Source: Coleofasciculaceae cyanobacterium CTOTU46641 (GTDB lineage: Bacteria; Cyanobacteriota; Cyanobacteriia; Cyanobacteriales; Coleofasciculaceae). Taken from it: a stretch of 35,947 nucleotides of DNA. The DNA lies in assembly GCA_031969515.1 (NCBI GenBank), contig DALYKF010000031.1:1-35947 (forward strand), read 5' to 3'. Below are positions 7,541-28,449 of this stretch, piece by piece (the stretch's first letter is position 1; every line of letters begins with the position of its first letter). Both the position numbers and the translations under genes were made by a program. The notes under the pieces were generated by a model, which made no database searches, was not told where the DNA came from, and was given only the letters and a program-made list of their open reading frames with translations.

Positions 7541-7551
7541 AAATCTCTCGG

Positions 7552-7586: not shown

Positions 7587-7603
7587 ACCTACGCATCTCA
7601 TCC

Positions 7604-9338: not shown

Positions 9339-9597
9339 GAGATAGAAGCCTATAACTCCACATCATGCTCTCCATAATAAGCAATTAACTCGTACAGGTC
9401 TTCAACATACTTAACAAACTGCCCCATGTTTGCGAGTAAAACACCTTTATCTAAATTTGGTGGTAAATGTGGATGCCCTGCTTCATTACGACATATTCTG
9501 CTGGTCGAGAACCAGGTCATCATCGAAGAAGATAACTTTGAGGAAGGACTGACCCCAGCCCTGATTGCCGATAACCTTGGCTACAACACCAATCAGC

Positions 9598-9846
9598 TTA
9601 GTCAGTCCGCTCCAACCGGATTGTTATGCCGTTTCTTTGCAAATATGGTTGCAATTGCTTACTCTTGCCTATTCCGTTAGCTTGGGCACACTGCCAAACC
9701 ACGCGATCGCTACTATTGACTTCCAACCCTATCTCTTCAAACAGGACAAAGCGAATATAAACTAACTCAAGCCAGCCACTAGCGGCAAGGCTACCTGCTA
9801 AGACAACAGAATGTCCACGTAAATTATGATCAACCAGAACATTCAT
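9598..9846 (-). pseudogene. DUF5615 (Mut7-C/PIN-like toxin) gene, 3'-disrupted
   Basis: MNVLVDHNL...VVWQCAQANG matches the DUF5615 N-terminal half. The last 10 codons are supplied by the dispersed repeat at 9603-9635. Possible remnants of the C-terminus lie in other frames further downstream. It overlaps the DUF433 gene by 4 nt. Confidence 0.5.
9603..9635. repeat. Short dispersed repeat, copy 2
   Basis: See copy 1. The sequence is cagtccgctccaaccggattgttatgccgtttc. Confidence 0.7.
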
Positions 9847-10223
9847 GCCTTTGATTCAAGTTTAGCCCGTTCTGCCCGGAGTTTTGCCCGAATCACTTCC
9901 GTACCTGGTCTAGGGGGTTTTGCAGCAATGTGAGCAACGAGAGCACGATTCTGCTCCTCATAATATTGTCGTAGTTCCTCGGCTTCCTTAAGGACGGCTT
10001 GGTACTCTGCTTCAACCTCGGCACGATGGGCATCAATGTAAGATAGAGCGGAATTAACCTGTTCATCGGTGAGGCTGAGCATGGCACGAATGAACTTTGG
10101 TGGATACTGCTCTGTCACATAGTCCATCACGTCATACAAAGTAATACGGGTTCCTGAAATTGTCAGTCCCCTCTCTGTACGAATGATAGCTGCTTGCCCA
10201 TCAGAATGCGAAGTCATAGCCAT
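9843..10223 (-). CDS. DUF433-domain protein (antitoxin-like partner of DUF5615)
   Basis: 126 aa. ERGLTISGTRITLYDVMDYV is the DUF433 signature. It has a C-terminal coiled-coil tail. Confidence 0.7.
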   Translation of the reverse strand: MAMTSHSDGQAAIIRTERGLTISGTRITLYDVMDYVTEQYPPKFIRAMLSLTDEQVNSALSYIDAHRAEVEAEYQAVLKEAEELRQYYEEQNRALVAHIAAKPPRPGTEVIRAKLRAERAKLESKA

Positions 10224-10445
10224 AACCTTGGAACAGCTAAGTCTATATTACCTCGCCAAAAAACTGATAGGTATGATGTCTACCCACCAGCTTCTAGTTC
10301 CTTTAAAAGTCCTCTAAATACTTGATTTCACGCCTTCTGTTACCAGCAGGGGAAAGTCTTGCCAGTTTCGCTGCTTCAGAGCCATGCGGATTATCTGAAT
10401 AGGCATCCACAACATCAATAGTGCGATCGCTTACACCAGTGAAAA

Positions 10446-10572
10446 CCCAGCCTACGGCGAACTTGCGATAGCGAAGCGCTGCTGCGAAGCGCAGATCGCA
10501 CTGGACAGCACACAAGCGATCGCTCTTCATATTGCTTGTTGGTTGAGAAACTGAGTTACTGCTTCCACTCCC
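10446..10572. repeat. Composite repeat, B-type unit copy B1 (contains HIP1 sites)
   Basis: cctacggcgaacttgcgatagcgaagcgctgctgcgaagcgcagatcgcactggacagcacacaagcgatcgctcttcat...gagaaactgagttactgcttccactc. Related copies are at 11221-11312, 12431-12573 and 13379-13402. Confidence 0.8.
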
Positions 10573-10589
10573 CTCAACAAAAGGGCTTG

Positions 10590-10778
10590 TTAGCTGGCGG
10601 TTGTATTCAGTAGTAACCATTCTACAAATGCCTCCCGCCCTAGCTCCCCCGATGCGATCGCCAACACCACACGCTCTTGTTCATCTACACAGACGTTAAT
10701 TTCCATTCCATTCAGCACAAGAAAAGTCTCTACGGCAGCATGACCTGTACGTTTGTTTCCATCAGAAACCGCATTATG
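10590..10778 (-). pseudogene. Doc/Fic-family (death-on-curing) toxin remnant, C-terminal half only
   Basis: The translation HNAVSDGNKRTGHAAVETFLVLNGMEINVCVDEQERVVLAIASGELGREAFVEW matches the Doc motif region (HxFx[DN]GNKRT...LNG) and the C-terminus. The frame closes with TAG immediately upstream, and the N-terminal approximately 65 aa are missing. Confidence 0.55.
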
Positions 10779-10989
10779 CTAAACACTGATACAATTGAGC
10801 ATTCTTTGTCAACACATAATTAGCTGCTTCAACAAACTCGCTCTTTTGAGAGTTGAGCCAATCCTCCAAGCTTGCCTTCAATAACACTTCGAGTGCAATC
10901 CCATGCACTGTTGCCAAATCTTGTAGCTTTTGGAATTGGGTGTCTGAAAGGTCAAGGGTAATAGAAGCCAAAGCGATCGCTCTCCTCAT
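10774..10989 (-). CDS. Ribbon-helix-helix (CopG/Phd-like) antitoxin
   Basis: 71 aa. The N-terminal ITLDLSDTQFQKLQDLATVHGIALEVLLKASLEDWL is RHH-like. It sits directly 5' of the Doc remnant. Confidence 0.6.
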   Translation of the reverse strand: MRRAIALASITLDLSDTQFQKLQDLATVHGIALEVLLKASLEDWLNSQKSEFVEAANYVLTKNAQLYQCLA

Positions 10990-11090
10990 GTTTCTGGGTT
11001 AAGTCTAGCATCTACCCCCAATTGGCAGCCTCGTTGTGCAGTCCCAACCCAGGAACGAAGCCAGCTAAGAATCTCCTCGCCTAGGGTTTG

Positions 11091-11312
11091 GTGAAAGGAA
11101 ACGATCGCCCTCTCATTTTATCTTGGCAATCACGTCCACGGTCACAGCCGTCCAGTGCGATCGCGCTTCTAGTTAGTACTGCCAAGAAAAGCGATGCTGG
11201 GTTTCCTTTTGTCAACTCAGCCTACGGCGGTAGGCGATTGCCCTGGACGGCACACAAGCGATCGCTCTTCATATCGCTTGTTGGTTGAGAAACTGAGTTA
11301 TCGTTTCCACTG
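11091..11312. repeat. Composite structured repeat A1+B2 (about 220 bp, imperfect terminal inverted repeats GTGGAAACGAT)
   Basis: The A unit (11091-11220) is almost identical to 13249-13378. The B unit (11221-11312) is related to B1/B3. The A and B arms are partly reverse-complementary (gtccagtgcgatc.gcgcttc). Confidence 0.8.
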
Positions 11313-11339
11313 TGTTGTTAGACCGTGCCTCACGGAACA

Positions 11340-11729
11340 CTACCGATTTACCAATCCTTGCAGTTCACTGATGTCGATATCGAGTCCTTGACGCTTCAGA
11401 TATTGATTCAGATTGATCTGGATGAATAAATCTTTGAGTTCTTCTGCAATCTCTGGGGGTGGACTGCCAGATAATGCCGTTGCGATTAGGCGTTCTGCGG
11501 CTCGTAACTCACCACATTCGATCGCGAGAGATGCAGCGCTACGATGAAGGACAGAGCGAGTGGGTTCAGCATCGAGAACACTAGCAATTAAATTGGCAGC
11601 TTGGGTTTCTTGTTCAAAGGCTTGGCGTGTTAACTGTGCCGCCTGTTCGATCGCACCTCTTAAACGGGCAACTGCCGCTGCTTCGGCTAAATCCATTGCT
11701 TGTTGGTGAAGCGTTTGAATCTGGTTCAT
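11340..11729 (-). CDS. Hypothetical alpha-helical protein (129 aa), downstream gene of a two-gene cassette
   Basis: Ala/Gln-rich helical ORF. It overlaps the upstream 189-aa gene by 4 nt. No recognisable motif. Confidence 0.5.
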   Translation of the reverse strand: MNQIQTLHQQAMDLAEAAAVARLRGAIEQAAQLTRQAFEQETQAANLIASVLDAEPTRSVLHRSAASLAIECGELRAAERLIATALSGSPPPEIAEELKDLFIQINLNQYLKRQGLDIDISELQGLVNR

Positions 11730-12295
11730 TGAAGTAAGGCTCCTTCGGGATTCTGTTTTGCGCTAACAACAGAAATTGGGCGGCTGAACTCTACCACAAT
11801 GATATAGGCTGGCAACCCTTCTGCATCAGATGCGCCAGTTTGTTCAGTTTTCTGCTTGACTCTGGCATTGATCTGACTCCGATTCCCCTTGCGAATTCCA
11901 GAAACCTCCAATCGAGCCATACGCTGGAACGGCAGCAGTGTGCTTGAATCTTGGCTCCCCAGCCAGTAGTCAAATCCAGTTCCCTTACGAGAACGTTCAA
12001 TCACCGTCAGATTGGTCAATTGCAGAATTAATAGGAATGCAATGCCATAAGCCGCTTGCTCGGTCGTATATTCGTCATCATTCCAGCATCGCCTTGCTTG
12101 TTCCGTAACGGGCTGCCAATCTAACTGGAACCGAGCGGAAAATTCTCCTTCGACTTCGAGGATTACTCCTGGCTCATGGGTTTCATCCGTTAGACAAATT
12201 GCACCCGCTTCTGCGATCGCGGCTCCAAAAGCGGGCGTGATTGCAGGAAGCCCTTGATTAAGGCGTTGTAAGTTTAAGATTTGATACTGGCTCAA
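11726..12295 (-). CDS. Hypothetical protein (189 aa), upstream gene of the two-gene cassette
   Basis: Intact ORF bracketed by composite repeats. No family recognised by eye. A possible D...E-x-K-like region (GFDYWL...RLEVSGIRKG) is speculative. Confidence 0.5.
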   Translation of the reverse strand: MSQYQILNLQRLNQGLPAITPAFGAAIAEAGAICLTDETHEPGVILEVEGEFSARFQLDWQPVTEQARRCWNDDEYTTEQAAYGIAFLLILQLTNLTVIERSRKGTGFDYWLGSQDSSTLLPFQRMARLEVSGIRKGNRSQINARVKQKTEQTGASDAEGLPAYIIVVEFSRPISVVSAKQNPEGALLQ

Positions 12296-12430
12296 AACGG
12301 TGTTGCCCTATAGAAACTAGAGGCTCAATTTTACTTGCGATCGCTACAGCTTGAGTCGCTGGCAATAATTTTGCCTTGATTGCCTTCTTCGACTTGGGGG
12401 CACGCCTGAAACTCATAAATCTCGTCGCCC

Positions 12431-12573
12431 CAACCTACGGCGAACTTGCGATAGCGAAGCGCTGCTGCGTTCGCCCTTGGCGTTGCCGAAGGCTAGCGCA
12501 GATCGCACTGGACGGCACACAAGCGATCGCTCTTCATATCGCCTACTGGTTGAGAAACTGAGTTACCGCTTCC
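12431..12573. repeat. Composite repeat, B-type unit copy B3
   Basis: Near-identical to B1, with a 25-nt insertion (ttcgcccttggcgttgccgaaggcta). Confidence 0.8.
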
Positions 12574-12609
12574 ACTCTCTTCGACGAGACGACTTGTTAG
12601 CTGACGGCG

Positions 12610-12999
12610 CTACTCCAGACACTGAAATCCCTTTTCCCCCTTCAATTTGCCATCGAAGCTTACGGTTTGTGTGCAACCCGCCTGTCGAGATACCGCCCCA
12701 ATCAAATAGTCAGAGAAATCAGCCTTGCCCTGCTTGTATCGCTGTAGAGCCTGGTCAATCGTTGAGCGGTTTTCAAATTCAAAAGCCGCACTATGCAACA
12801 TGGACTCCAGGACACTGACGATCTCGTCTTTATGAAAGCCATAATTTGCGCCCCTAAGTACCCAAACCAACTCACACAGAACGATATTGGTGATAAAGCA
12901 AGGCTGATTCTGCTGAATGACTGTAACGGCTTGTTGCCATTGCTGCTCATCATCTCTGGTGAGGTATCGAACGAGGATGTTGGTATCAAGTCCAATCAT
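12610..12999 (-). CDS. vapC: PIN-domain toxin (VapC family)
   Basis: MIGLDTNILVRYL is the PIN N-terminal motif. The likely start is the internal Met at 12999; the ORF track extends to 13020. It overlaps the antitoxin gene. Confidence 0.75.
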   Translation of the reverse strand: MIGLDTNILVRYLTRDDEQQWQQAVTVIQQNQPCFITNIVLCELVWVLRGANYGFHKDEIVSVLESMLHSAAFEFENRSTIDQALQRYKQGKADFSDYLIGAVSRQAGCTQTVSFDGKLKGEKGFQCLE

Positions 13000-13231
13000 T
13001 CGCGCCCTCGGAAATGGCAATTTCCATATCCTCGAGGGAAGCTCGTTGAATGTTGGGTCGATGGAGAATGCCGGATAGGGTTTCTACGGCAACATTGAGG
13101 GGAAAAATTTTGACTTGACCTTCGTTGTCAATCACAAACTCGACTCGGCTACCGCTTACCAGCTTGAGATGCTGCCGAATTTCTTCAGGCAGGGTAATTT
13201 GTCCGGTATCGGTAACTGTTGTACTGAGCAT
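12986..13231 (-). CDS. vapB: AbrB/MazE/SpoVT-type antitoxin (VapB)
   Basis: 81 aa. TGQITLPEEIRQHLKLVSGSRVEF is a swapped-hairpin AbrB-type DNA-binding motif. It is immediately 5' of the PIN gene. Confidence 0.7.
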   Translation of the reverse strand: MLSTTVTDTGQITLPEEIRQHLKLVSGSRVEFVIDNEGQVKIFPLNVAVETLSGILHRPNIQRASLEDMEIAISEGANDWT

Positions 13232-13248
13232 AGTTAGGGTGACTGCAA

Positions 13249-13402
13249 GTGAAAGGAAACGATCGCCCTCTCATTTTATCTTGGCAATCACGTCCACGGT
13301 CACAGCCGTCCAGTGCGATCGCGCTTCTAGTTAGTACTGCCAGAGAAAAGCGATGCTGGGTTTCCTGTTGTCAACCCAGCCTACGACGAGCTTGCGATCG
13401 CA
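13249..13402. repeat. Composite repeat A2 plus truncated B unit
   Basis: It matches 11091-11225 with about 4 mismatches over 130 nt, followed by cctacgacgagcttgcgatcgcac. Confidence 0.8.
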
Positions 13403-13486
13403 CTTTTTTTCTAGCGATCGCTTGACAATTAAGACAGTTGCTACAAGATTAAAATCATATTTTTCCTATTACAAGACAGCAAGATT

Positions 13487-13639
13487 AAAATTCCCTTTTG
13501 CCTAGCATTTCTTTTGCAATCTCCTTACATTTTTCATCTAGTGCATCCTCGTACTTAGATCTTAATGATTTTTCCGTAGGAATTTCTTCTAACCGTTTTT
13601 TCAAATCATCTGTTTGTGGCTTATCTGAATTTTGCATTT
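13487..13639 (-). CDS. Small hypothetical ORF (50 aa) downstream of the NACHT cluster
   Basis: Read by hand: MQNSDKPQTDDLKKRLEEIPTEKSLRSKYEDALDEKCKEIAKEMLGKREF. It is below the ORF-track cutoff, lies in an AT-rich region, and is weakly supported. Confidence 0.2.
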
Positions 13640-13693
13640 TTTCTATTTCTCATCTGTCAGTCGCTTATAAGCAAGAGCGTTAGTAAGCTAATT

Positions 13694-14257
13694 TTAAACA
13701 TCAAATCCATACCTCTCTTTCAAAAAAGCTCTTGTTTTTTCGTCAGGACTTTCCCCATAGCAAGAAGCAACAACTTCTCCATAATCTTCTAAATCAATTG
13801 ACTCAGTTGAATTTAATGCTTGTAGGAATCTTTGTTCAGCAGAAGGATGGATGAGGACAAAATAATATGCCCAACGTCCAGTACTGTCTTTAGCTTTAAG
13901 CTTATGAATTAAATGACCTCGACTTGCAATATGCCGATTAAGATAAGTATCGCCATCAGATGAGGTCGTGCTGTTTCCTTGATTCTTTTCCTGCTCCCAT
14001 TGTTCTAGTTGTAGGAGTGCATGATTGACTGCATCTCGAACCTGATTATTCTCATGCTCCTTCATATTTTCAAGAATTTTCTTCCCTTCAAGGTTTTCCA
14101 CTCCTGCCAATGTATAGGCATAGGCATCAAGGTCAATTTGTTCCCCCTTGCCAAGATTAAGCTGATCCCGAAGAGCATTCACATCTCCCATCCCAACTAA
14201 GGCGAGGAGACAACGGGCGTGCAAGTCATAACCACTGATGTTCTTCTTTGCCATCAT
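13694..14257 (-). CDS. Hypothetical protein with N-terminal HEAT-like repeat, co-transcribed with the NACHT gene
   Basis: 187 aa. It overlaps the NACHT gene stop by 4 nt. The N-terminus resembles a PBS-lyase HEAT repeat (ALVGMGDVNALRDQL...VRDAVNHALLQL). The C-terminal domain is unknown. Confidence 0.55.
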   Translation of the reverse strand: MMAKKNISGYDLHARCLLALVGMGDVNALRDQLNLGKGEQIDLDAYAYTLAGVENLEGKKILENMKEHENNQVRDAVNHALLQLEQWEQEKNQGNSTTSSDGDTYLNRHIASRGHLIHKLKAKDSTGRWAYYFVLIHPSAEQRFLQALNSTESIDLEDYGEVVASCYGESPDEKTRAFLKERYGFDV

Positions 14258-17004
14258 TCATCTCCTTTGCTATTGATTGAAGTGTTTATGATTTGTGTTA
14301 AGGATGATATGACTTGTTCGCCTCCGATCAATGTTAAATAGACCAAAGCTTCATCTCGATCTTCATTGGTTAGCAAATCATCCTGAAAGGCTTTTAGCAG
14401 TGGTTCTATCATTTCGGGGACAAAACAGCCTAATCGACCCATTGCGATCGCGACTAATTGCTTAGGGCTTTCCGGGATATCTGAAGTAATGAGAGATTGT
14501 AGAACTTGAGTATCCTGCGGACGGTGAATCGGCGTAATCAGGGGTAAATCTTTGTGGGGCTTTCTTCCATCTGCAACAGTTGCCCACTGCCTAATCCAGT
14601 CATCAACTTGATTAAAGACAAGCGTTTCAGTTCCACAAACACTCAAAATCAAAGCCGCCCACGTTCGAGAATAGGCATCGCGCCTATCATCTGTTACAAT
14701 TTGCCGTAAGACCTCAAGTTCTTCTTCATTAAAGCGGTAAGCTGTATAGGTGTGGCATGTCTTGGCGCTTGTTAACCATCCCAAAGCCCACAGCACTGCA
14801 AATGAAATAGCCTCATGTTCGCCGCTCTCCTTTGCGGTTTCCAACAATAAGCCTACAGTTTTTGGCAAGAGAGAATCGGGGAGGAAGTCAATCCTGATGT
14901 TAGAGTTCAGTACTTGGGTTCGATAGAATGCGTTCATTAGTTTAAGTGCTGCATCAGCACGGATTTTGATCGAGTTATTATCCTGTAACTTTGTCAAAAG
15001 AGGCTCCAATATCTCGAATGCATTATCCGCGTTAAGCACGTCACCGCTTGTCGTTGCCATCGAGTAAACAGCCCCGATCCTGCTCCGGCGGTTGCCACAG
15101 TATTTTACAAAGCTTTGCAACATCCGTTTTCGGCATCGTTCTGCAAAGCAAGAGCGCATGAGAGAGTACAGAACTTCATCCATGAGTGTGTTCTGTTTTG
15201 TGTTGAACCCATCCAATCTGTTTAGATTATCTGTAGCTGCATCGATGACGGCATCAACGGTTTCACCACTCACATCGGGTTCTTCGACTAGGGTTTGTAG
15301 CGCAAAGATGGATAAAGCACGAGCTTCCCTTTCAGCAGTGAGAGGCGAAGGGAGTAGCATTAACATTGCATCATCAGCAGTGATACCACTTTTTCCGAAT
15401 TTACCGTCTTTTCGACGAGGTAAGGAACCAATACAAAAGCGAATGACTTCCTGCCAATAACCGGCAGTTACAGGTTCTGTTTTTGTTACAAGTCCCCAAA
15501 AATCGACTTTTCTCTCTGCAATTTCAATCTCATGCACTAGCTGGTGCAAGCGCTGTAGAACTTCTACCCCTTCAGAGAAAATACGACCATTCAGTAATGC
15601 CTGGGCTGCAAAATACTCCTGGAACGATTGATGAAAAAATTGGACTTCATCGCAATCCATTTGGTCTCGTATACTAGTTCCTGCAATGGTTAGCAACCCA
15701 ATCTGGCTGAGAACTAAGTCATACCATTCTTCAGGAGAATACCGCTGTATTCTGCTTGTTGCTTTGTTGGCATAAAACTCTTCGATCGCTTCAATCACCT
15801 GTGACTCTTGCCAGTGTTGAGCACCATCCAAGCGCATCTGGTAAGCAAGGTATTCCAGGTGAGGCAGGATTTCATTATTGGGTTTGCTGACATAGCGGTC
15901 GTCCGAAATAGGACGACGTTTAATCATCAAGTCTACTGCTCGACGATAGAAATCTCCCCTCCGATCACGTGGCGAAATACTGTCTTGGAGCGCTAATTGA
16001 GTGATGAGAGTGAGGGGAAATACGTTTTCGCATAGGGTGGCTACTCTGCGGTCACTACAAACAAAAGATTCGAGAGCATTGGATAGAGATGCCTTTCCTA
16101 GAAATTTTGCAAAGTTCTGAGCAAATTCTTTCTTCTCAGAGCCTCTCAGAGGCGCTACATTAATGTGCTTGAAGGAACGCAGTGAGTCTGCGATAGTATT
16201 GAATCCAAAAACTCTAGAGGTGAGAACGATCGGGATTGGTTCATGGATGTTCGCAATCAGTTGAGCAAGCTGCCGTCGTTTCCGACTGGATGGAATTTCA
16301 TCCAGTCCATCGACTAGAAGTAAAACCTGTCCTTCTGACATTTTCTGTTCGAGCAGATCTGTCAGTAAGCGACGAGGCTCATTAGCGTGATAACCCAACT
16401 TTTGTAGTTGATACTCGATTAAATGGCTCAAACTGCACTCAAAGTCAGTGGCTAGCAGATCGCGACAGAATAGAACCACAGGTATCCAAGATTGATCCGG
16501 TAATGCCGCTTGATTTTCAGAGATTCTAGTCGAATCCTCTGTATGCAAAGGTGACAATGGATGCTTATCGAAATAACTATAAGCCAGAAAACGTAGAAGA
16601 GTTGTCTTACCACAACCCGGATCTCCCACGATTACTAATCGGGCTTCTGACGCTAACTGACTACTGATTTTGCAAACGGTTGGCTCTGGTTGTTGCAAGA
16701 GGTGCCGGATCGGCGATCTATCAAAACGCAAGGCACTCGTAAAGCTATCGCGGAATTGCTGATGAACTTGTTCTACATCAGTTGATTCAAGTTGAAAAAT
16801 TTGGCGCAGTGTAGATTGCTCAACCCGTTGGACATTGGTGGTGCTATTCCTGGCTGATGGGTTGTCTTGTTCAACATCTGTTTCAAGAAGAACGGAATCA
16901 GGGCGAGGATCGTAAGTCAGCAGCAATGGTAAATCGATGTATAGATCTTCGATCGGGAAATCGGCTGATCCAACTTGCTGTTGAATCAACAGTCCAACCT
17001 CCAT
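14254..17004 (-). CDS. NACHT-family STAND NTPase with C-terminal HEAT/ARM-like repeats
   Basis: 916 aa. Walker A is LVIVGDPGCGKTTLL. Walker B is VLLLVDGLDEI. An approximately 130-aa N-terminal region of unknown function precedes the NTPase. The C-terminal region is a long helical repeat. Confidence 0.8.
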   Translation of the reverse strand: MEVGLLIQQQVGSADFPIEDLYIDLPLLLTYDPRPDSVLLETDVEQDNPSARNSTTNVQRVEQSTLRQIFQLESTDVEQVHQQFRDSFTSALRFDRSPIRHLLQQPEPTVCKISSQLASEARLVIVGDPGCGKTTLLRFLAYSYFDKHPLSPLHTEDSTRISENQAALPDQSWIPVVLFCRDLLATDFECSLSHLIEYQLQKLGYHANEPRRLLTDLLEQKMSEGQVLLLVDGLDEIPSSRKRRQLAQLIANIHEPIPIVLTSRVFGFNTIADSLRSFKHINVAPLRGSEKKEFAQNFAKFLGKASLSNALESFVCSDRRVATLCENVFPLTLITQLALQDSISPRDRRGDFYRRAVDLMIKRRPISDDRYVSKPNNEILPHLEYLAYQMRLDGAQHWQESQVIEAIEEFYANKATSRIQRYSPEEWYDLVLSQIGLLTIAGTSIRDQMDCDEVQFFHQSFQEYFAAQALLNGRIFSEGVEVLQRLHQLVHEIEIAERKVDFWGLVTKTEPVTAGYWQEVIRFCIGSLPRRKDGKFGKSGITADDAMLMLLPSPLTAEREARALSIFALQTLVEEPDVSGETVDAVIDAATDNLNRLDGFNTKQNTLMDEVLYSLMRSCFAERCRKRMLQSFVKYCGNRRSRIGAVYSMATTSGDVLNADNAFEILEPLLTKLQDNNSIKIRADAALKLMNAFYRTQVLNSNIRIDFLPDSLLPKTVGLLLETAKESGEHEAISFAVLWALGWLTSAKTCHTYTAYRFNEEELEVLRQIVTDDRRDAYSRTWAALILSVCGTETLVFNQVDDWIRQWATVADGRKPHKDLPLITPIHRPQDTQVLQSLITSDIPESPKQLVAIAMGRLGCFVPEMIEPLLKAFQDDLLTNEDRDEALVYLTLIGGEQVISSLTQIINTSINSKGDE

Positions 17005-17094
17005 CCGCGAATAGCGGTCAGCTTCTTGCTTTAAATATCTGACTAATGCCTGTTGGGTTCTTTCCTTTATCCGTTCCCGTCCGGACGACTCCAG

Positions 17095-17553
17095 TCAATC
17101 TTCAGGCTGAGCACCAAAGTAAAACTTGGCATTTGAACCCGTCTGAATCACCTGAGATTTGGGATCATTCACCTGCAAACCCTGTCCAGTAAAAATTTGC
17201 TGCACATTTCTAGCATTTACCTCATCAAACCGGACTAGGACTTGATAAATCTCTTGCGCTATTGGTTGCACCATGCTGACGAATTCAGGATTCTCCATTT
17301 CCTTGAGCAGATAATCCTGGATTTGTTTAAGTTCTGGTTCAGATCCTTTTGCAGCAGCCTCTAAAACCTTATCGGCTCGTGGTTTTCCTTTGAAACACCA
17401 ATTCCACACCACCTGTCCCAACTTCTGAATTTGTGCAGAGGCTGCTTCTACAAGCTTTTCACCTAATTTGCTGCCTGCACCTTCATAAAGTTTGTCCAAA
17501 ATGATTTTGGCGATTGGGGCTGCTAAGACTGGAGTGATAATTGGATCAAGCAT
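17095..17553 (-). CDS. Hypothetical helical protein (152 aa) immediately upstream of the NACHT gene
   Basis: Intact ORF 90 nt upstream of the NACHT gene on the same strand. No motif recognised. Confidence 0.5.
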   Translation of the reverse strand: MLDPIITPVLAAPIAKIILDKLYEGAGSKLGEKLVEAASAQIQKLGQVVWNWCFKGKPRADKVLEAAAKGSEPELKQIQDYLLKEMENPEFVSMVQPIAQEIYQVLVRFDEVNARNVQQIFTGQGLQVNDPKSQVIQTGSNAKFYFGAQPED

Positions 17554-17702
17554 ACGGTTTAAGGAATAGAGGTCACGTTATCTGTTCTACACTATTGCTG
17601 TCGCAACATCCATTGTCTTGCTAATCGTCTCATCTAAACTTGTGCTTTTGAATACCAAAAGACGAATTTTCAGCTACACCCTACCGGGACATGAAGCAAC
17701 AT

Positions 17703-17769
17703 AACTATTATTAGACAGAAACTTTCCGCCTAAGATCCCATAGTGGGTGGATAGGCAGAATGATTCAGC
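17703..17769. repeat. 67-bp direct repeat, left copy, bounding the PanA islet
   Basis: aactattattagacagaaactttccgcctaagatcccatagtgggtggataggcagaatgattcagc. It matches 19422-19488 with about 7 mismatches. Confidence 0.8.
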
Positions 17770-17879
17770 ATAACACCCAAAATTTAATACTTATGCAGAT
17801 TATTTCTGCAAAATACGCTGCTCAAGCTGAATAACCAGAATCTTTCCGCATATTTTCAGATTCCTTACGGAGGTGAGAG

Positions 17880-18120
17880 GGGCAGGTTTCTGCTTCGACA
17901 CAAAATCAAGCCCTCAGTGCCTTGCTATTTCTCTATCGTGAAGTACTCAATCTTAACATGGCAGGCATTGATGCTGTTCGAGCCAAAGGACCTCAGTCTG
18001 TGCCAACCGTGTTGACCAAATAGGAAGCGATCGCAGTAATCCAACAGTATGTCATTGGTCGTGCGGTTCTACAAATTTATCCTCTTACGCACTTTCAGGG
18101 TCTGTTTTGATGGTGAAGTT
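17880..18120 (+). pseudogene. Possible degraded tyrosine recombinase/integrase fragment
   Basis: The translation ALSALLFLYREVLNLNMAGIDAVRAKGPQSVPTVLTK*EAIAVIQQY loosely fits the integrase patch LLY.TGLR.SEL..L...D.D.....V.R.KG.K.R.VPL. It has an in-frame stop and is weakly supported. Confidence 0.25.
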
Positions 18121-18164
18121 GAGCGGCTGTAAGCAAGCTCTGTATCTACACCAAGAGCTTTTAG

Positions 18165-18188
18165 AAGTCCGCTCCAACCGAATTGTTA
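18165..18188. repeat. Short dispersed repeat, copy 3 (agtccgctccaaccgaattgttag)
   Basis: It shares its core with copies at 7552 and 9603. Confidence 0.6.
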
Positions 18189-18264
18189 GACAGAGTAATT
18201 TAAAGCATCTTATGAAAGAATAAAATCTATAAATGGAGCGAAACGTATTGAATGAGACTTACAC

Positions 18265-18879
18265 TCAAGGTACTGGATATATTTTGTGATACCTTTCCCA
18301 CCAAACCAAATAAAAATGCCCTTGTAGCTTTATACCCCAAGCTCTGATGGTATTAGCAAATCTAAACCGAAAAGCCGTATCGTATTCTTCTAAACCGATT
18401 TCGATCCACCTATCCTGAGCTTCTTGCACCAAAGTAGTTAGCTCTTGATGGTGATGCTTAGGTACAGTTTTACCACCCTTAGCAGGTGTTTTTTGCTCAA
18501 ATAAGATTTCAGACCAAGTTGATTTTTCCAACAAACTAAAATTTGGAAGTATTTGGGTTTGCCATTCTTCCTCAGTCCAACATCTTTGTTCTCGCCATGA
18601 CCACTCTCCTTCCAAGTCAGACACAGTAGTACACCAAGTCAAGTTACAAGTTATTGCAAATGATTCTTCGCTAGGAAGATATAAAGACTTATTTTTACTT
18701 GGCTCTTCCTGAACCTTAACGACCTTCAAGGAAAGTTCAGGTATTGGCGCTATTTTCACAGTTTTGGTTACCAAATTTTCCACGCTAGACGAAAATCTTA
18801 CCGACTTTGCCTTGCGTGCCTGAGCTTTTTCTTCTTGCCTTTGCTTCCTTCTCTCAGCTTTGGAAGGTTTATCCGTCAT
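18265..18879 (-). CDS. Hypothetical protein (204 aa), candidate toxin partner of the Panacea-domain antitoxin
   Basis: Overlaps the upstream PanA-like gene by 4 nt. It has a basic N-terminus (KAERRKQRQEEKAQARKAK) and a Trp-rich C-terminal domain. No known family recognised. Confidence 0.55.
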   Translation of the reverse strand: MTDKPSKAERRKQRQEEKAQARKAKSVRFSSSVENLVTKTVKIAPIPELSLKVVKVQEEPSKNKSLYLPSEESFAITCNLTWCTTVSDLEGEWSWREQRCWTEEEWQTQILPNFSLLEKSTWSEILFEQKTPAKGGKTVPKHHHQELTTLVQEAQDRWIEIGLEEYDTAFRFRFANTIRAWGIKLQGHFYLVWWERYHKIYPVP

Positions 18880-19310
18880 AGGCTCGAATAATATTCATGC
18901 ATTGCAGCTAAGGGGATAACCTTATCACACCTCTCTGTAGGTTTCAGGTCGCCTCTAGCGTCTTTCCAAGGAGACTCCATATGAGTTAACTCACTTAACC
19001 ACTGCCCACTCTTGTCTTGGAGTGCCTCTAGAACTTTGTCAATAGAGTCTTGTTGATTGGGGGTTAAAGCATCAATGTCCCCATCAGCAAAGGTATCTTT
19101 ATTAACCTTAAATTGATCTCGATGATACCCATACAGAATAGGTACTACAGGACCATTCGCCCAAGCCTGAATATCTTCGTCAAACAAGGGGCTTTCATCC
19201 CAAACAAGAGACCAAGCTTGACTGTAATAAACAAGCTTTTGAAGCTTCATCGCAGTCATTTCGCCTGTTTTAGTTAGGATATATTTCGCCACATCCACAG
19301 CACGTGCCAT
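18876..19310 (-). CDS. Panacea-domain (DUF4065, PanA/SocA-like) antitoxin
   Basis: 144 aa. KLQKLVYYSQAWSLVWDESPLFDEDIQAWANGPVVPILYGYH matches the DUF4065 core (LQKLLYfaqgw...lf.e.feAW.hGPVvp.vY). Confidence 0.75.
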   Translation of the reverse strand: MARAVDVAKYILTKTGEMTAMKLQKLVYYSQAWSLVWDESPLFDEDIQAWANGPVVPILYGYHRDQFKVNKDTFADGDIDALTPNQQDSIDKVLEALQDKSGQWLSELTHMESPWKDARGDLKPTERCDKVIPLAAMHEYYSSL

Positions 19311-19421
19311 GTTGTCCCCCTTGTAGCTTTTAGCGAGCTAATAAACAATTATAGCATACTAGATCGTTTGTACTGCAATGCTGAGTGGATTATGGTTGCT
19401 GCTCAAAACCTTGCTCTGTTT

Positions 19422-19488
19422 AACTATTATTAGACTGAAAATTTCCCCCTAAGATCCAATAGTGGGTGGATATGCAGAACAATTCAGC
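19422..19488. repeat. 67-bp direct repeat, right copy
   Basis: aactattattagactgaaaatttccccctaagatccaatagtgggtggatatgcagaacaattcagc. It lies immediately 3' of the major vault protein gene stop. Confidence 0.8.
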
Positions 19489-19498
19489 CCTCCATAAA

Positions 19499-22198
19499 TT
19501 AAGCCAGAGGACGATCGCTTTTCGGCAATGGCTGTGTTTCTGCTCCCATCGGACTAATCAACCCCTGCGCTGTATTAAACAGATTAATCGGATTTCTGCC
19601 ATCAGTAATCAACACACTTTGAATACCCAGCGCTTGCAAAAGTCTAGCCTGCATTTCTGGACCAGCTTGAGCCATAGCTTTGAGCGTTTCAGAGCCAATT
19701 GCTTCTACTTTTTGTCTAAATTCAGCGCTAGTAATTTCTGCCATCCGCTGCGCTTTTTCAATATCCAAATTATTCAACGCTTGTTGATGCGCTAACTCAG
19801 CTTCCTGTCTTGCTCTTAATTGAGCTAATTCTACGTCCGAGCGAATCCTTGCCGCCTCAGCTTCTTGCTGTGCCAAATTCACCGTTAATTGACCTTGAAT
19901 TCTCGCTGCTTCTGCCTTAGCCCTGGCTTCTGCTGTTGCTTGCCCCGTAGATTCAATGGCGGCATTTTCAGCTTCTAATTCCAACAAATTCTTGCGCTCT
20001 GCTTCCGCTGCACTTTTATCAACAATTGCCTGCCGTTCTAGTCTCGCTTTGGCTTCTTGTTCAATCCGTTCAGCATCATGTCTAGCCGCTGCTTCTTGAG
20101 CATCTGTTGTAATTTGTATAGCAATCTGTACCGACTTTTGGAGACTCTTTAATGTCTCTTCATCTACGGGTTCAACGGATTGGATATCAACATTAAAAAT
20201 CACTAAGTTATTCGTCCTAAAACGCAATTCATCCCGTACATGACCTTCTGCATCTATTCCAAACACAGCCGTGCGAATAATGTGAGCCGAATTGCGATGA
20301 AATTCATCAAATTTTACACCCGCTACCGCACCTCGCACACGGGAAGCGATCGCTTTACAAGCCGTATCTACAAAATCCGGAACTTGAAACAGCTTGGCTG
20401 CTGCTTGTTCATCATGTCGATCCACATCAAAATACCAATTGTAGGATAAACGTAACTGCAATCTGGCATGATCTGAGGTTTCCACCGTGAAAAGATCCGT
20501 CATAAAATCTGGCCCTAATAACAAGGCTAAGGATTTGATAATATGAGGACGTTTAGGTACACTACCCGATAAACTTAACACCGTAAACGCTTCATCTGGC
20601 CCTAACATTACTAAGTCGGGACCGAATACAGTTCTGGCTGTTCTTTCCTTGTAATCATGGATTTGTACAGCGGCATTTTGTGGCACATGAAAGACAACCG
20701 CCCGACTTTTATCTCGTGCAGATGCGGTCTGATCTAGAGTGGATGACTCTGAGATTTCAGTTGAGCGATCGCTCCCTTTACTTTTGCTAACATGATACCG
20801 ACCCCGCTCAGAAACTGGGTCATTTTTGATCGCTAATAATTCTTCAACAATCGGGGGTAATTCTTTTTCCCAAAGCTCTTCATAGGGACTGAGCATATAA
20901 GCTTGGGGACCACTCACAACTTTCAGTTCACCCGTCTGAATATCACGCACATAAATCCCTTCATTTTTATCCAAAGGAATCGCTTGACGTTTTTCAATCA
21001 CTTCCACTTCTACACGGGGAATATAATCTCTGGGGCCAGCAATCATCCACATATCACCTGGGTACCGTTGGATTAAATTATCCCCTTCCCCTTCCCTAAA
21101 ACCTTCTTTCGCTTTGAGCAAAAGTGATTCTTGTTCGCCCAAAACATAAATGTTTTGAATGCCATTTTCCAGGGATTCACCGGGATGCAAGAAAAATGAA
21201 AGTCTGCCTTGGCGAACCTCTCGCATTCCTAACTGAGGTTTGCCCTCTTCATCAATGGGGTTGACAACAATACACCATTCTCTATCTCCTAATGTGGTAA
21301 TTTCTACTTCTCCAACCACCTCTTCATAGACATCAGGAATATGAATTTCGGCATCGGCAAACGTGACTAACCATTCATCACCCGCTTTACGTTGCCGACT
21401 AAAAATATCTGTAAAAGTGCGTTTTGCTCGCAAATGTAAGGCTTTTTTCTCGGTTAAAACGTAAGCCTTAATAATCCCAATTGCTTCCTCATCTACCCCA
21501 GGCAAATAGGCTCCTTCTTCCCTTACTAACCACTCTTCACCCGCTCTACGTCTATTCCCTTGGCGATCGGTACAATTTTGTCGCGCTAATAATCGTAACG
21601 CTTGATTCGGCTTAATTACGGTTGCCGTGACTACTTTGATCACTTCAACTTCAATTCGGGGACGATAAGTTCCTGGTCCTTCAAATAGCCACTCATCCCC
21701 TGCTAAACGGTTGATTGGTTCTGATTGAGTTGCGACTTCATCCGTGACTAAAATCGAATCGGAAAAATCTCTCAATGCTCTTAAACGTAGTGCTTGATTT
21801 CTCTCAACGACTGTCAGTTGGGTAATCTCTCCCTGAACGTCTTCACCAGGATAGAGTGGAAACGGTTCTTGGGCAAAGCGAATTTCAGCATCGCCGTATC
21901 TGAGTTTAATTTGTCCATATTCATCTGTAATCGGATTACCATTTTGATCTCGAAGTACAGGATTAGCAATCACACAATAATAGCGAGGTGGCACTACTAT
22001 CATGGGTTCAGGTTTTAATATTAGCCGCTCATGGTCACGTAGAGTAATGGTTTGAGGGCCAATTTCTAGCCGGGTCACACCTGTATTATTATCTAGAACG
22101 TGAATAAACTGCTGAGGTTTGAGGCGAATTACGCCTGTAGAACTTCCGGCGACTTCCGTTTTACTGTCAGTTTTTCGCTCAGTTGTATTCATTTCCAT
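19499..22198 (-). CDS. Major vault protein (MVP) homologue
   Basis: 899 aa, collinear with eukaryotic MVP. The N-terminal repeat [31 protein letters not shown] and motifs [26 protein letters not shown] and [16 protein letters not shown] are present. The SPFH-like shoulder and the C-terminal coiled coil with GPEMQ...[11 protein letters not shown] are also present. Confidence 0.85.
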
Positions 22199-22382: not shown

Positions 22383-23657
22383 TTAGAAATTAATGGCTTC
22401 ATTTGGACCCACTAAAGATATATAAGGTTCAGAAAAGTATTGATTAGCAACGGCTTGAGCGATTTCTGGAGTAACATTAGTAACGTCCTCCTGAAACTGG
22501 GTATCAAACTCAATCCCTAACCCCAGCGTCTCATACCAACCGTAGATTTGAGCAAGTTGAGCATTCGTTTGTTTCCCTAAAGCATACTGACCTAAAAGCT
22601 TATTCGTTGAAGTCTGAAGTTCATCAATACTCAGAGAAGACGTACAAAGGCGTTCAACTTCTGCACGTAGACCCTCTAGCGCTATGGTTGTATTTTCCGG
22701 TGCCGTACCCATATAGACCACGAACGTAGATGCCGACTGACGCGTCGGATAAAATGCAGAAACGTCATAGGCTAACCCTCGTTTTTCCCGCAGTTCCACA
22801 AACAAGCGACTGGAAAGACCATTTCCTAAGTAAGTATTGAGTAATTTTAAGGCAGCATAGTTCGGATCTTTGACGGCTGAAGCGAGATAGCCTAGCATAA
22901 CAATAGATTGCTGAGTTTCTTGAGGTGTAATAACTCGGCTAGGTTGAGATTTAATCAACGGTAAAACGGGTTGATTTACAGGTGTTTGAGGCGCTTGCCA
23001 ATCCCAAAATACGCTCGTAATCTGCTCGATCGCTTCCGCTGGAGTAACGCGACCTGCAACACTAATGACTAGGTTATCAGGACGGAAATAGGTTTGATGA
23101 TAGTCCTCTAGATCACTCCGCAATAACTTAGCGATCGCTGCTTCAGTTCCTAAAATTGAGAGACCATAGGGATGGTCTTGATACATTGCCTGTCGTAACT
23201 GCTCAAAGGCAATATTAAACGGTTGCTCTTTTTGAGAACGAATGTCTTGAATGGTTAAATGTCGTTCGAGTTCTACTTCAGTTTCTGGAAAACTCGGATA
23301 TCGCAACATCTGCCCTGCTAACTCTAACATTTCAGGCCAGTCTGTAGAAACAGTCTTGAGTGAGAGCAAAAAGTAATCCGTAGCTGTATCCGCACTAAGT
23401 TGAGCGCCAACTGACTCAACTCGTTCAGCAATTTCAATGGATGATAACTTCTGTGTTCCTTTCGTTAGTACGGCTGAAAGTAAGTGAGAAAGTCCAGCTT
23501 TTTCGCGGGATTCCCACTGACTCCCTGCTCGAATAAATAGACGAGTCGCAATAATATCTGCGGCTGAATTTTCTATAGCAATTACCACAATACCATTATC
23601 TAAAACCGTGCGGTGGATAATTTGCTGTTGTTCCGGAGCGGTCACATTTTGAGGCAT
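22383..23657 (-). CDS. M16-family peptidase, non-catalytic (beta-like) subunit
   Basis: 424 aa with the M16 fold, but the zinc motif position reads GLSHLLSAVLTKGT (no HxxEH). Confidence 0.75.
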   Translation of the reverse strand: MPQNVTAPEQQQIIHRTVLDNGIVVIAIENSAADIIATRLFIRAGSQWESREKAGLSHLLSAVLTKGTQKLSSIEIAERVESVGAQLSADTATDYFLLSLKTVSTDWPEMLELAGQMLRYPSFPETEVELERHLTIQDIRSQKEQPFNIAFEQLRQAMYQDHPYGLSILGTEAAIAKLLRSDLEDYHQTYFRPDNLVISVAGRVTPAEAIEQITSVFWDWQAPQTPVNQPVLPLIKSQPSRVITPQETQQSIVMLGYLASAVKDPNYAALKLLNTYLGNGLSSRLFVELREKRGLAYDVSAFYPTRQSASTFVVYMGTAPENTTIALEGLRAEVERLCTSSLSIDELQTSTNKLLGQYALGKQTNAQLAQIYGWYETLGLGIEFDTQFQEDVTNVTPEIAQAVANQYFSEPYISLVGPNEAINF

Positions 23658-24005
23658 TTTTGTTGTTGGTTGTTAGTTGTTAGTTGTTAGTTGTTAGTTG
23701 TTGGTTGTTGGTTGTTAGTTGTTAGTTGTTAGTTGTTAGTTGTTAGTTGTTGGTTGTTGGTGATTTGTTTTTAACCAATTTACCCAATTACTAACACTCC
23801 CACCCCCACTCCCCACTCCCCACTCCCCATTTGGTTGTTAGTTATTATATTATTTTCTAAATGCCTGCTACACATTAATCGCCGCGTCTTCGACTCTCCG
23901 CGTCATCAGCATCTATAGCGAACATAAATAAAATTAGTATTAGTCGAACACCAAACAGCAAACAACAAACAACCAACAACCAACAACCAACAACCAACAA
24001 CAAAA
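23658..24005. repeat. STRR heptamer array with a large inverted-repeat organisation between the two M16 genes
   Basis: (A/G)GTTGTT units occur about 14 times at 23660-23760. CCCCACT repeats occur at about 23800-23835. AACAACC/CAACAAC units occur at 23950-24003 and are the reverse complement of the first block. Confidence 0.8.
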
Positions 24006-25301
24006 TTACCAATTTCCCATAATGGGTTTGAGGACAGTAACAGCGTAATGATAGGGAGAAAGATATTGCTGCGCTAAGTGCATTAAGTCTTCTGGAGTTC
24101 GCTTTTGAATCTGTTGCGGGTAAGTAACAGCGAGTTCTGCTGTCGCAATCGTGTTGTAGTATCCATACAAACCTGCAAGCTGACTGGCAGCTTCAGTGGA
24201 AAAGATGTAGTCATTACAGAGTAGGCGTTGACAGCGACTGAGTTCTGCTTGAGAGAGGGGTGTTTGTTGCAATTCCAGAAGGCGATCGCAAATTAGGGTT
24301 TCAACGTGTTCGAGGTGTTGGGGGTCTAGGTATGCACTAATTGTAAATAAACTGGAATCCCGTTGCAGAGAGAAACCACTACTAATCCCTTGAACTAATC
24401 GTTGTTCTTCTCGTAATTCTCGGACTAAGCGAGAGGATCGTCCATCGGCTAATAATACCGAGAGTAAGTCTAAACCATAAGCATCTGCCAAGCGATCAAC
24501 TCCAGGTCCAATCCAAGCCATTAACAGACGTGCTTGTTCGATTCGGGGTAAATATAATTCCTGACGACGAATTTCTGTAATCGGGGGTTCAGCGTCTGGA
24601 GTCACATTTGGACAATCACCGGGTTTACAGAAGTCTTGAAAGGACTGTTGGACTAACTCTAATGCTGATGCTTGTTCTATTCCCCCGACAATGACAACGG
24701 TCATATTTTCGGGTTGATAGTAGGTAGAATGGAAGCTACGCATTTGCTGGGGCGATCGCGTCATTAATTGCTGTTCTGTTCCCAGTACCGAGCGTCCGTA
24801 GGGGTGATGCTGGTAAACATTCTCGGAAAGTGCCTGAAACCCTAGCCAATCCGGATTATCATAACAAGAGCGAATTTCTTCTAAGATGACATCCCGTTCC
24901 CGAACAAATTCGTCGTCGGGAATAGTGGCGTGTAAGAGCAAATCGGCTAGAGGGGGTAGGGTATCATCTAAGTATTGAGCAGCAGTCGTAATAAAGAAAT
25001 GAGCATAGTCATGACTCGTTGCTGCATTGGTGAGTCCGCCACGACGTTCAATGATCGAGTCGAATACACCAGGAGCAAGTGTAGCAGTCCCTTTAAAGAT
25101 CATATGTTCCAGGAAATGTGCCATCCCAGTCCATGGGGAAGGTTCTCTGATCGCACCCGCACGCACCCAAACATCGACCACAACCGCTGGAGTTGCAGGT
25201 AGATATTGGTGAATAACCGTCAACCCATTCGCAAGTCGAACGATCTCAGCAGGAAATGTAGCAGTAGTCAGCGGCTCAGACAGCAATTTTTCTAATCTCA
25301 A
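24006..25301 (-). CDS. M16-family zinc peptidase, catalytic subunit (pitrilysin-like)
   Basis: 431 aa. The inverted zinc-binding motif HFLEHMIFKGT (HxxEH) is present. Confidence 0.8.
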   Translation of the reverse strand: MRLEKLLSEPLTTATFPAEIVRLANGLTVIHQYLPATPAVVVDVWVRAGAIREPSPWTGMAHFLEHMIFKGTATLAPGVFDSIIERRGGLTNAATSHDYAHFFITTAAQYLDDTLPPLADLLLHATIPDDEFVRERDVILEEIRSCYDNPDWLGFQALSENVYQHHPYGRSVLGTEQQLMTRSPQQMRSFHSTYYQPENMTVVIVGGIEQASALELVQQSFQDFCKPGDCPNVTPDAEPPITEIRRQELYLPRIEQARLLMAWIGPGVDRLADAYGLDLLSVLLADGRSSRLVRELREEQRLVQGISSGFSLQRDSSLFTISAYLDPQHLEHVETLICDRLLELQQTPLSQAELSRCQRLLCNDYIFSTEAASQLAGLYGYYNTIATAELAVTYPQQIQKRTPEDLMHLAQQYLSPYHYAVTVLKPIMGNW

Positions 25302-27599: not shown

Positions 27600-27768
27600 G
27601 TTTTAATGGGGAGTGGGGAGTGGGGAGTGGGGAGTGGGGAGGGGGAGAGAGGGGGAAGACGAAGGGGGACGTGGAGACAAATAACCAACAACTAACAACC
27701 AACAACTAACAACTAACAACTAATAACTAACAACTAAAAACCAACAACCAACAACCAACAACAGACAG
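27600..27768. repeat. STRR heptamer block (GGGGAGT then AACAACT/AACAACC units) ending at the regulator start codon
   Basis: ggggagtggggagtggggagtgggga, then ccaacaactaacaaccaacaactaacaa, then ccaacaaccaacaacagacag ATG. Confidence 0.8.
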
Positions 27769-28449
27769 ATGAGAATCTTGCTAATTGAAGATGACGATCG
27801 CATCGCTAAACCTTTGGCAGAAGATTTGCGACACCAGCACTACGTGGTAGACCTTGCCTATGATGGGATTGAGGGATGGATTTGTTCTCAAGGTGTCACG
27901 TATGACCTGATTTTGTTGGACTTGATGTTACCAAAACTTGATGGTATCACCTTATGTCAGAAGTTGCGATCATCACATTATAAGGGTTTTGTGTTGATGT
28001 TGACAGCGCGAGATACGACAACGGATAAAGTGATTGGGTTAGATGCAGGTGCGGATGATTACTTGGTGAAACCCTTTGAATTGGAGGAATTATCTGCTCG
28101 TATTCGAGCCTTATCTCGTCGTCCAGTCGAGTTACAACAACAGAGTTTTCTCTGTGGCAAATTAGAACTCAACCCGGCACTACATACAGTGACTTATGCG
28201 GGGACTCCCTTAAATCTAACACCCAAGGAGTATCTAATTCTAGAGTGTTTTATTCGTAATCCTTCTCAAGTTTTCAGTCGCTCAATGTTGCTTGATAAAC
28301 TCTGGGAATTGGATAAAGTTTCTGGGGAAAATACGATTAAAACACATATTACGAACCTGCGCCATAAACTTAAAGCAGCCGGAAGTAAAGAGGAAGCAAT
28401 CCAAACGGTTTATGGGGTTGGGTACCGTTTTGTGCAAGACTCGTTATGA
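27769..28449 (+). CDS. OmpR-family response regulator (REC plus winged-helix)
   Basis: 226 aa. MRILLIEDDDRIAKPL...DLILLDLMLPKLDG is the receiver domain, and the C-terminal VYGVGYRF is the winged-helix DNA-binding domain. Confidence 0.85.
   Translation: MRILLIEDDDRIAKPLAEDLRHQHYVVDLAYDGIEGWICSQGVTYDLILLDLMLPKLDGITLCQKLRSSHYKGFVLMLTARDTTTDKVIGLDAGADDYLVKPFELEELSARIRALSRRPVELQQQSFLCGKLELNPALHTVTYAGTPLNLTPKEYLILECFIRNPSQVFSRSMLLDKLWELDKVSGENTIKTHITNLRHKLKAAGSKEEAIQTVYGVGYRFVQDSL

Follow-up and report, generated by a model that had tools for sequence, protein, structure and literature searches.

A probable decayed chromosomal integron carrying a Panacea/T204 cassette in a Coleofasciculaceae cyanobacterium

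Chromosomal integrons are known to hold toxin–antitoxin and defence cassettes (PMC11023631, bioRxiv 10.1101/2024.07.02.601686), and integrons, together with frequent pseudogenes of the integrase gene intI, have been reported in Cyanobacteria (PMC4889954, PMC2426708). The attI site is unknown for most integrons, according to the authors of IntegronFinder (PMC4889954). Panacea proteins belong to the type II PanAT systems described by Kurata et al. in 2022, who predicted 1,268 PanAT pairs, with 938 putative toxin sequences, in 41 clusters, lacking any domain match (PMC8832971). Here, we describe a locus of Coleofasciculaceae cyanobacterium CTOTU46641 (contig DALYKF010000031.1, assembly GCA_031969515.1), of which the whole analysed stretch of 35,947 nucleotides (nt) is referred to as the window. 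It contains an islet, bounded by direct repeats, that encodes a Panacea-domain protein (PanA) and a family-less partner of 204 amino acids (aa), the candidate toxin T204. The islet and its neighbourhood, at about 7.5-19.5 kb of the window, are likely to represent, in a filamentous host, a decayed sedentary chromosomal integron, in which PanA and T204 would form a cassette encoding a type II toxin–antitoxin pair. Integrons and Panacea pairs are both established types of system, and what is less explored is the T204 family and the attI/attC class of this lineage. A literature search found no link of Panacea to integron cassettes.

The locus shares with sedentary chromosomal integrons, such as that of Vibrio cholerae (PMC11023631, PMC4889954), a putative two-gene toxin–antitoxin unit with a candidate promoter of its own and a 3′ attC, set in a co-oriented array with other toxin–antitoxin and defence cassettes. 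It differs from them in its Leptolyngbya-like cyanobacterial host, its gutted intI, the mutated R′ core of the attC and a second, partial attI copy ahead of the cassette. The gene pair resembles PanAT type II systems in having a Panacea protein of about 144 aa encoded upstream, a 4-nt overlap and a variable partner, and in being conserved as a pair across phyla, also in prophages, but the T204 family differs from those systems in having no match in Pfam, NCBIfam or the PDB and no experimental record that we could find (PMC8832971). The family is probably among the 938 domain-less putative toxins of that study. The validated PanT of P. moraviensis (cluster T6, MazF-like) has the termini MPGNIL... 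and ...IRQNNF (PMC8832971), which are unlike those of the T204 family. The type VI system SocAB of Caulobacter likewise has a SocA/Panacea domain in its upstream protein, whereas PanA reaches only 38.9 bits (E = 7e-10) against a cut-off of 190 for the NCBIfam SocA_antitoxin model, and T204 has no SocB-type match.

Flanking repeats, an attI-like unit and an integrase remnant

Direct repeats of about 67 base pairs (bp) with some seven mismatches had been reported around the islet in the original prediction, and they are real: repeat 1 (17702-17769) and repeat 2 (19421-19488), each of 68 nt, are identical at 61 of 68 positions and differ at positions 16, 21, 27, 38, 53, 60 and 61. Their placement between the 3′ end of the vault-protein gene and the NACHT cluster was also described correctly, as the vault-protein stop codon (19499) lies 10 nt past the far end of repeat 2 and the NACHT cassette follows repeat 1. 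Only these two copies occur in the window, and shuffled sequences give none. The extent of the repeat had to be corrected, since repeat 1 is the left 68 nt of a longer unit of 171 nt (the attI-like platform unit, or 'AB'; 17702-17872, minus strand), the remainder of which is missing from repeat 2. Four imperfect palindromes (xCAGAAnnnTTCxGC) are found in this unit at a spacing of exactly 40 nt (17716, 17756, 17796 and 17836), and its minus-strand end reads ...AATAATAG|TTATGT, where the NACHT cassette begins. Repeat 2, on the minus strand, is a partial and divergent copy comprising the cassette-proximal 68 nt only, with substitutions of its own at positions 27, 38 and 53, which are invariant in the other copies; it ends in ...AATAATAG|TTAAAC, immediately before the PanA cassette. 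An Rfam scan of 17400-19700 gave nothing at E <= 1.

The repeat core was searched for by exact scan in 185,579 species genomes (one per species) and in the JGI metagenomes. The genomes yielded four loci, in Leptolyngbya, two species of Stenomitos and 'Lyngbya', each with a single copy; the metagenomes gave five and added three more. The repeat is not a common genome-wide one, the alternative named at the outset. Similarity at these loci spans about 171 nt (window 17702-17872), with 81-91% identity. Counting all sources, the unit is present at 12 other loci from at least nine other genomes or samples, beside unrelated genes, and at seven loci, from five other organisms or samples, it ends about 30-70 nt ahead of intI genes or their remnants. 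Among the loci found via the repeat, L019 and L022 (handles of this form denote the compared loci) have decayed intI remnants directly after the unit, as detected by tblastn with a cyanobacterial intI N-terminus. Three loci were fetched independently of the repeat, through protein homologs of the integrase fragment of the islet, and in all three, L032 of Leptolyngbya NK1-12 and L033 and L034 from two places in Elainella, the unit ends about 45 nt before the integrase start. On a plasmid of Kovacikia minuta (L039), the unit lies about 50 nt upstream of an intact intI of 320 aa, WP_224346711.1, which scores 468 bits against a cut-off of 265 for TIGR02249 and is labelled as an integron integrase in RefSeq. 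On the side facing away from intI, all copies lose conservation within a few bases of ...AATAG|TT, beyond which lie different genes, divergent from intI. A position between intI and the first cassette, with a G|TT boundary, is thus shared by the window and seven other loci, and from this position and the junction type we infer that the unit is an integron attI-like site.

The attI1 site of characterised integrons is an attI with integrase-binding repeats. Like attI1-type sites, the present unit stands between the intI start and the first cassette, has a G|TT crossover-type junction and holds several repeated putative binding sites, whereas its length of 171 nt and its four palindromes phased at exactly 40 nt set it apart, and its sequence is unrelated to attI1. 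Other accounts of the unit were rejected. A small RNA or leader is disfavoured by the RNAalifold covariation term, which is unfavourable, with one compensatory pair only. The unit is also not a decayed 5′ coding part of intI, its translations being unlike the N-terminus MQPPPKKLLDQ... and intact genes starting about 50 nt later. Nor does it appear to be an insertion hot spot, since the split copy in L018 is a mere IS4-like insertion with inverted ends. This element (L018 3839-5144; a 384-aa transposase and inverted ends CTTAGTGGTGCAGAAAAC) lies within the attI-like unit of Leptolyngbya BL-A-14 and is accompanied by a 10-bp duplication (GTGGGTGGAT), while the unit of the related genome L020 is uninterrupted. 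In L023 (168-79, minus strand), a short variant of the attI-like unit has palindrome unit 2 joined directly to unit 4 and looks like the product of a deletion between the 40-nt internal repeats.

Next to the unit, on the plus strand at 17877-18066, lies a probable gutted integron-integrase pseudogene, in which codons ~55-118 are left, with one in-frame stop, the N-terminal ~60 codons and the entire catalytic domain having been deleted. The fragment matches PF13495 (E = 2e-6) and, over positions 55-118 of the 315 of the model, the NCBIfam 'integron integrase' family TIGR02249 (E = 7.9e-14); over 57 aa, it shares 91% identity with a composite built from the N-termini of cyanobacterial intI proteins, and it has 85% nucleotide identity to the intact Kovacikia intI. 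The degraded tyrosine recombinase suspected here is therefore genuine, and the profile check that had been proposed for 17880-18120 points to an integrase of the integron type. Its orientation, pointing off from the NACHT cassette, is that expected of an integron platform, and it probably belongs to this neighbouring platform and not to the PanA/T204 module. Related platforms occur elsewhere: a unit of about 1.2 kb is 93% identical between Leptolyngbya NK1-12 (L032 6787-7981) and the two places in Elainella (L033 and L034 6778-7983), and consists of the attI-like unit, an internally deleted intI (residue ~105 joined to GYDIRTVQELLGH) and a conserved open reading frame of 70 aa. The same intI lesion is common to the genera and the copies, which is odd for a dead gene.

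The islet had been interpreted as a small integrative element, composed of PanA/T204 and a tyrosine integrase of its own, that inserted itself between the vault gene and the NACHT cluster, giving rise to a second copy of a 68-bp att site, before it decayed. Direct repeats do flank a segment that contains an integrase fragment and sits exactly between two unrelated gene clusters. However, repeat 1 matches the copies of other genera at 58-62 of 68 positions and repeat 2 at 61, no closer, which argues for old independent copies and not for a duplication made by insertion. Repeat 1 moreover belongs to the 171-nt unit carried beside intI, without PanA, in other genomes, and the integrase appears to be of the integron type, with an orientation opposed to that of the NACHT cassette. 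The homology of the PanA/T204 module to other genomes (19411-18272) leaves out both the integrase fragment and the repeats. An empty site, that is, a vault/NACHT junction with a single repeat, was found neither in the genome and metagenome scans nor in the relatives of the NACHT cluster: no repeat-core locus from either scan includes a gene for the vault protein, PanA or the 152-aa protein; the nearest relative of the NACHT cluster follows an attC in another array and lacks a vault-protein gene in its vicinity; and relatives of the 152-aa gene sit in other contexts. We regard the integrative element as very improbable.

Cassettes, attC sites and the co-oriented array

The first cassette behind the attI-like unit (13678-17704, minus strand) encodes a 152-aa protein, a NACHT NTPase of 916 aa and a 187-aa protein. 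This block has 81.7% nucleotide identity over 4,052 nt (17705-13678) to contigs of another cyanobacterium (L030 2089-6086), where an attC with the ending ...GGAAC G|TTATGTTGC stands before it instead of the 171-nt unit; in the window, ...AATAG| of the unit is followed by the same TTATGTTGC. The first base of the NACHT block is thus the same in both genomes, with an attC before it in one and the attI-like unit in the other, as integron recombination predicts. Elsewhere (L028, L022), homologs of the 152-aa protein are found ahead of NB-ARC/TPR and NACHT-WD40 proteins.

PanA and T204 make up a 1.3-kb cassette (19423-18105, minus strand) with its own attC. The PanA gene (18876-19310, minus strand) encodes 144 aa with a Panacea/DUF4065 domain, matching PF13274 SocA_Panacea at E = 5e-18 (66.5 bits against a cut-off of 25.7) and phrog_1281 at E = 7e-37, and overlaps the T204 gene (18265-18879, minus strand) by 4 nt (ATGA), in agreement with the predicted coupling of a Panacea-domain antitoxin-like gene to that of the 204-aa protein. 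DNA identity amounts to 88% with a Pseudanabaenaceae contig, from 19411 to 18272 only, and to 82% with Symploca, from 19341 to 18272; the shared module includes neither the repeats nor the integrase fragment nor the attC. A Panacea gene stands directly upstream of the T204 homolog in all seven distinct contexts checked, namely this window, Symploca, Pseudanabaenaceae, three metagenome or assembly contigs and a Klebsiella prophage, the T204-family member of which is 38% identical. A candidate cassette-internal promoter, read from the sequence at 19348-19378 (minus strand; TTGCAG, a 19-nt spacer and TGCTATAAT, an extended -10), is kept in the Pseudanabaenaceae copy; a promoter and terminator consensus scan, which found no site for the cassette, missed it because of the 19-nt spacer.

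Several observations concern the relatives of this pair. In Klebsiella (L035-L038, ~3564-4600), the Panacea/T204-family pair lies at the prophage end, with a tape-measure gene, LysC and AlpA nearby, and the T204-family member of this cluster is found on more than 300 contigs. The pair of Symploca contig L009 is flanked by direct repeats of about 110 nt (~5390-5500 and 6640-6750) with GCTAACAAAGG, and its right flank differs from that in the sister contig L007; this arrangement may represent a further cassette array, one with an attC class of its own. At L010 3655-3700, upstream of PanA in Pseudanabaenaceae, TTAGGCAAAAATTTTCTGTATAAC resembles the last palindrome of the attI-like unit at 19 of 24 positions, is nearer to repeat 2 than to repeat 1 and falls below BLAST-reportable length.

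A short dispersed repeat had been noticed in the islet, and it is present at 18140-18189, with further copies at 7527-7576 and 9578-9627, and proves to be an attC site (RYYYAAC...GTTRRRY). The attC of the PanA/T204 cassette (18105-18191, minus strand) reads GTCTAAC-AATTCG-GTTGGAGCGGACT...ACAGCCGCTCAAC-TTCACC-ATCAAAA and has the R″/L″/L′/R′ layout with bulged bases in the L stem, the R′ core being changed from GTT to ATC. When the window and related loci were searched for the left half with a regular expression (AAC, 4-8 nt, TGG[AT]GCGG), there were 21 matches against 0.8 in shuffles, with the canonical sites all on the cassette strand. Canonical attC sites (RYYYAAC, GxTGGAGCGG, CCGCTCAxC, GTTRRRY) directly follow the stop codons of minus-strand genes, both in the window and in L018, L020, L021, L030, L032, L034 and L039, and most of them have the textbook partner sequence, as in GCATAAC...GTTATGC (L018), GCCCAAC...GTTGGGC (L032) and AGCTAAC...GTTAGCT (Kovacikia plasmid). 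Further attC-like sites lie within the cassette array of the window, on the minus strand, at 9629-9530, at 8656-8570 and, truncated, at 7578.

Another explanation of the repeats sees in them a promoter or operator module that was duplicated, that a dimeric regulator binds and that drives the PanA and NACHT operons, with no role in recombination. Four palindromes exactly 40 nt apart would suit such a regulator, on the minus strand an operon starts 110-150 nt downstream of each copy, and in other genomes the unit is always 5′ of variable genes, many of them defence-like. The tie of the unit to intI starts in seven loci speaks against this, as do the precise G|TT boundary, the occurrence of the same NACHT cassette behind an attC elsewhere and the conserved -10 region that the PanA module has outside the repeat. 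Regulation is also not exclusive of an attI role, as attI regions also hold the Pint and Pc promoters. A purely regulatory function appears quite improbable.

The rest of the array (7490-13677, minus strand) encodes MazE-PIN, two unknown pairs, DUF433, RNase H and DUF2281-PIN. The array is co-oriented, every gene between 7604 and 17553, those of the NACHT block included, being encoded on the minus strand, and it is rich in toxin–antitoxin pairs. Between its cassettes lie a 94-nt repeat, 100% identical at 11091-11184 and 13249-13342, and several repeat families of 40-113 nt (10446-10600, 11185-11342, 12429-12607 and 13344-13415); these intercassette repeats are rich in GCGATCGC and are not of the canonical attC type. 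On the other side of the islet, the vault-protein gene (19499-22198, minus strand) encodes a bacterial protein of 899 aa that is homologous to the major vault protein of eukaryotes, with strong matches to Vault repeats and shoulder domains, and two M16 peptidase genes are found upstream of it. Runs of heptamer repeats (TTGTTAG/CAACAAC type) occupy intergenic positions at 23645-23784, 23933-24016, 27666-27777 and 4777-4846; long runs of this kind between genes are typical of filamentous cyanobacteria.

The T204 family

The claim that the 204-aa protein belongs to no recognisable family holds, as T204 has no match in Pfam, NCBIfam (E <= 1), PADLOC or the sequences of the PDB. Its 63 close homologs are about 200 aa long; the few with an organism name come from cyanobacterial metagenome-assembled genomes, and the named ones are all annotated as 'hypothetical protein'. 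A profile search against 1.84 billion representatives extended the family to 1,742 clusters at E <= 1e-3, of which 747 are at E <= 1e-10, and its named members, from Ralstonia, Marinobacter, Klebsiella and Pluralibacter, carry the same label. Searches of BFVD and tblastn against phages gave nothing useful.

In an AlphaFold2 model of T204, a basic helix at the N-terminus is followed by a disordered linker and then by a confidently modelled domain (predicted local distance difference test score >90 from about residue 80). This globular domain, residues ~75-204, is rich in tryptophan, and the residues D88, W93, W95, W122, E153, A154, R157, F170-R171-F172-R173, R179, G182, F189, W193 and H198 are nearly invariant. 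The modelled domain appears to resemble the RelE/ParE type, and T204 probably represents such a fold with a large N-terminal elaboration. Sequence comparisons gave no corresponding signal: none of 140 diverse family members matches a RelE/ParE-type Pfam family (ParE_toxin, HigB-like, YoeB and similar) or any other that could account for the protein, the family profile finds nothing among PDB sequences, and hhalign of that profile with Escherichia coli YoeB and RelE showed no signal either. T204 has twice the length of the RelE, HigB, YoeB and ParE toxins, from which it is further set apart by its basic N-terminal helix, its disordered linker and an insertion rich in Trp; it also lacks profile-level sequence similarity to them, and its proposed neutraliser is a Panacea protein and not RelB, HigA or YefM.

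With its coupling to a real Panacea gene and its lack of a family, T204 is a reasonable toxin candidate, as had been proposed from the sequence. PanA would bind and neutralise T204, and T204, once freed, would halt growth. The likeliest mechanism would be that of a RelE/YoeB-type ribosome-dependent mRNA endonuclease, as the conserved Glu and Arg and the C-terminal His appear to fit an RNase better than a ParE-type gyrase poison. The pair would then stabilise the array as a module for addiction or defence.

A T204 that does not arrest growth is rather unlikely in our judgement. It would be a non-toxic partner, binding nucleic acids or sensing phages, or a SocB-like substrate that the Panacea protein passes to a protease, as in type VI systems. 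The lack of a sequence match to any toxin family would agree with this, and one predicted PanT was non-toxic in tests, according to Dataset S1 of the Panacea paper (PMC8832971). A further point in its favour comes from contigs of three assemblies (L013 1263-3724, also L014 and L015), in which the Panacea gene is split by an IS21-family insertion element (istA/istB) and the partner is kept intact.

Weighing the integron and its meaning

If the locus is a decayed integron, as we consider likely, its order along the minus strand would be as follows: the vault gene; the partial attI copy; the PanA/T204 cassette, with its G|TTAAAC start, candidate promoter and attC; a spacer of about 38 nt; intI codons ~118 to ~55 in antisense; the full attI-like unit (17872-17702); the NACHT cassette starting at G|TTATGT; and more toxin–antitoxin cassettes. 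The two 68-nt repeats would be old copies of the cassette-insertion region, derived from two platforms or from a platform rearrangement. The simplest origin of the second attI copy would be two tandem platforms fused by deletions, and Elainella does carry two platform copies.

Several points count against this reconstruction. The attI function of the 171-nt unit is deduced from position only, and a second attI-like copy beyond intI is not part of a canonical integron. The IntI-specific C-terminal domain is deleted, so that membership in the integron class draws on the N-terminal part and on homology to the intact Kovacikia gene. The PanA/T204 cassette is probably immobile now because the R′ core of its attC is mutated. 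With respect to toxicity, the T204 homolog behind the IS21-split Panacea gene (211 aa) is intact and retains all invariant residues, which is compatible with a silent or non-lethal partner, while polarity could also explain its retention.

A bolder version of the integron account, which we hold to be unlikely, is that the defective platforms, each comprising the 171-nt unit, a deleted intI and the 70-aa open reading frame, are still spread and loaded in trans by an intact IntI, and that T204 represents a new Panacea-neutralised branch of the RelE fold. The persistence of platforms at 93% identity across genera, and in two copies within a single genome, suggests a non-autonomous platform served in trans. 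If defective platforms are still in use, the tandem attI copies of the window would be the footprint of a platform duplication, and the T204 branch of RelE-fold toxins, if real, would span cyanobacteria to Klebsiella prophages.

The mystery islet now has a concrete anatomy, and current ideas are not overturned by it. A candidate attI sequence and an attC class are defined for a cyanobacterial integron lineage, and the T204 family, large, unannotated (~1,700 clusters at 50% identity) and strictly tied to Panacea antitoxins, is a sensible target for toxin characterisation. A 4-kb NACHT system and a Panacea pair would here have been moving as integron cassettes, which fits the view of chromosomal integrons as stores of defence and addiction functions.

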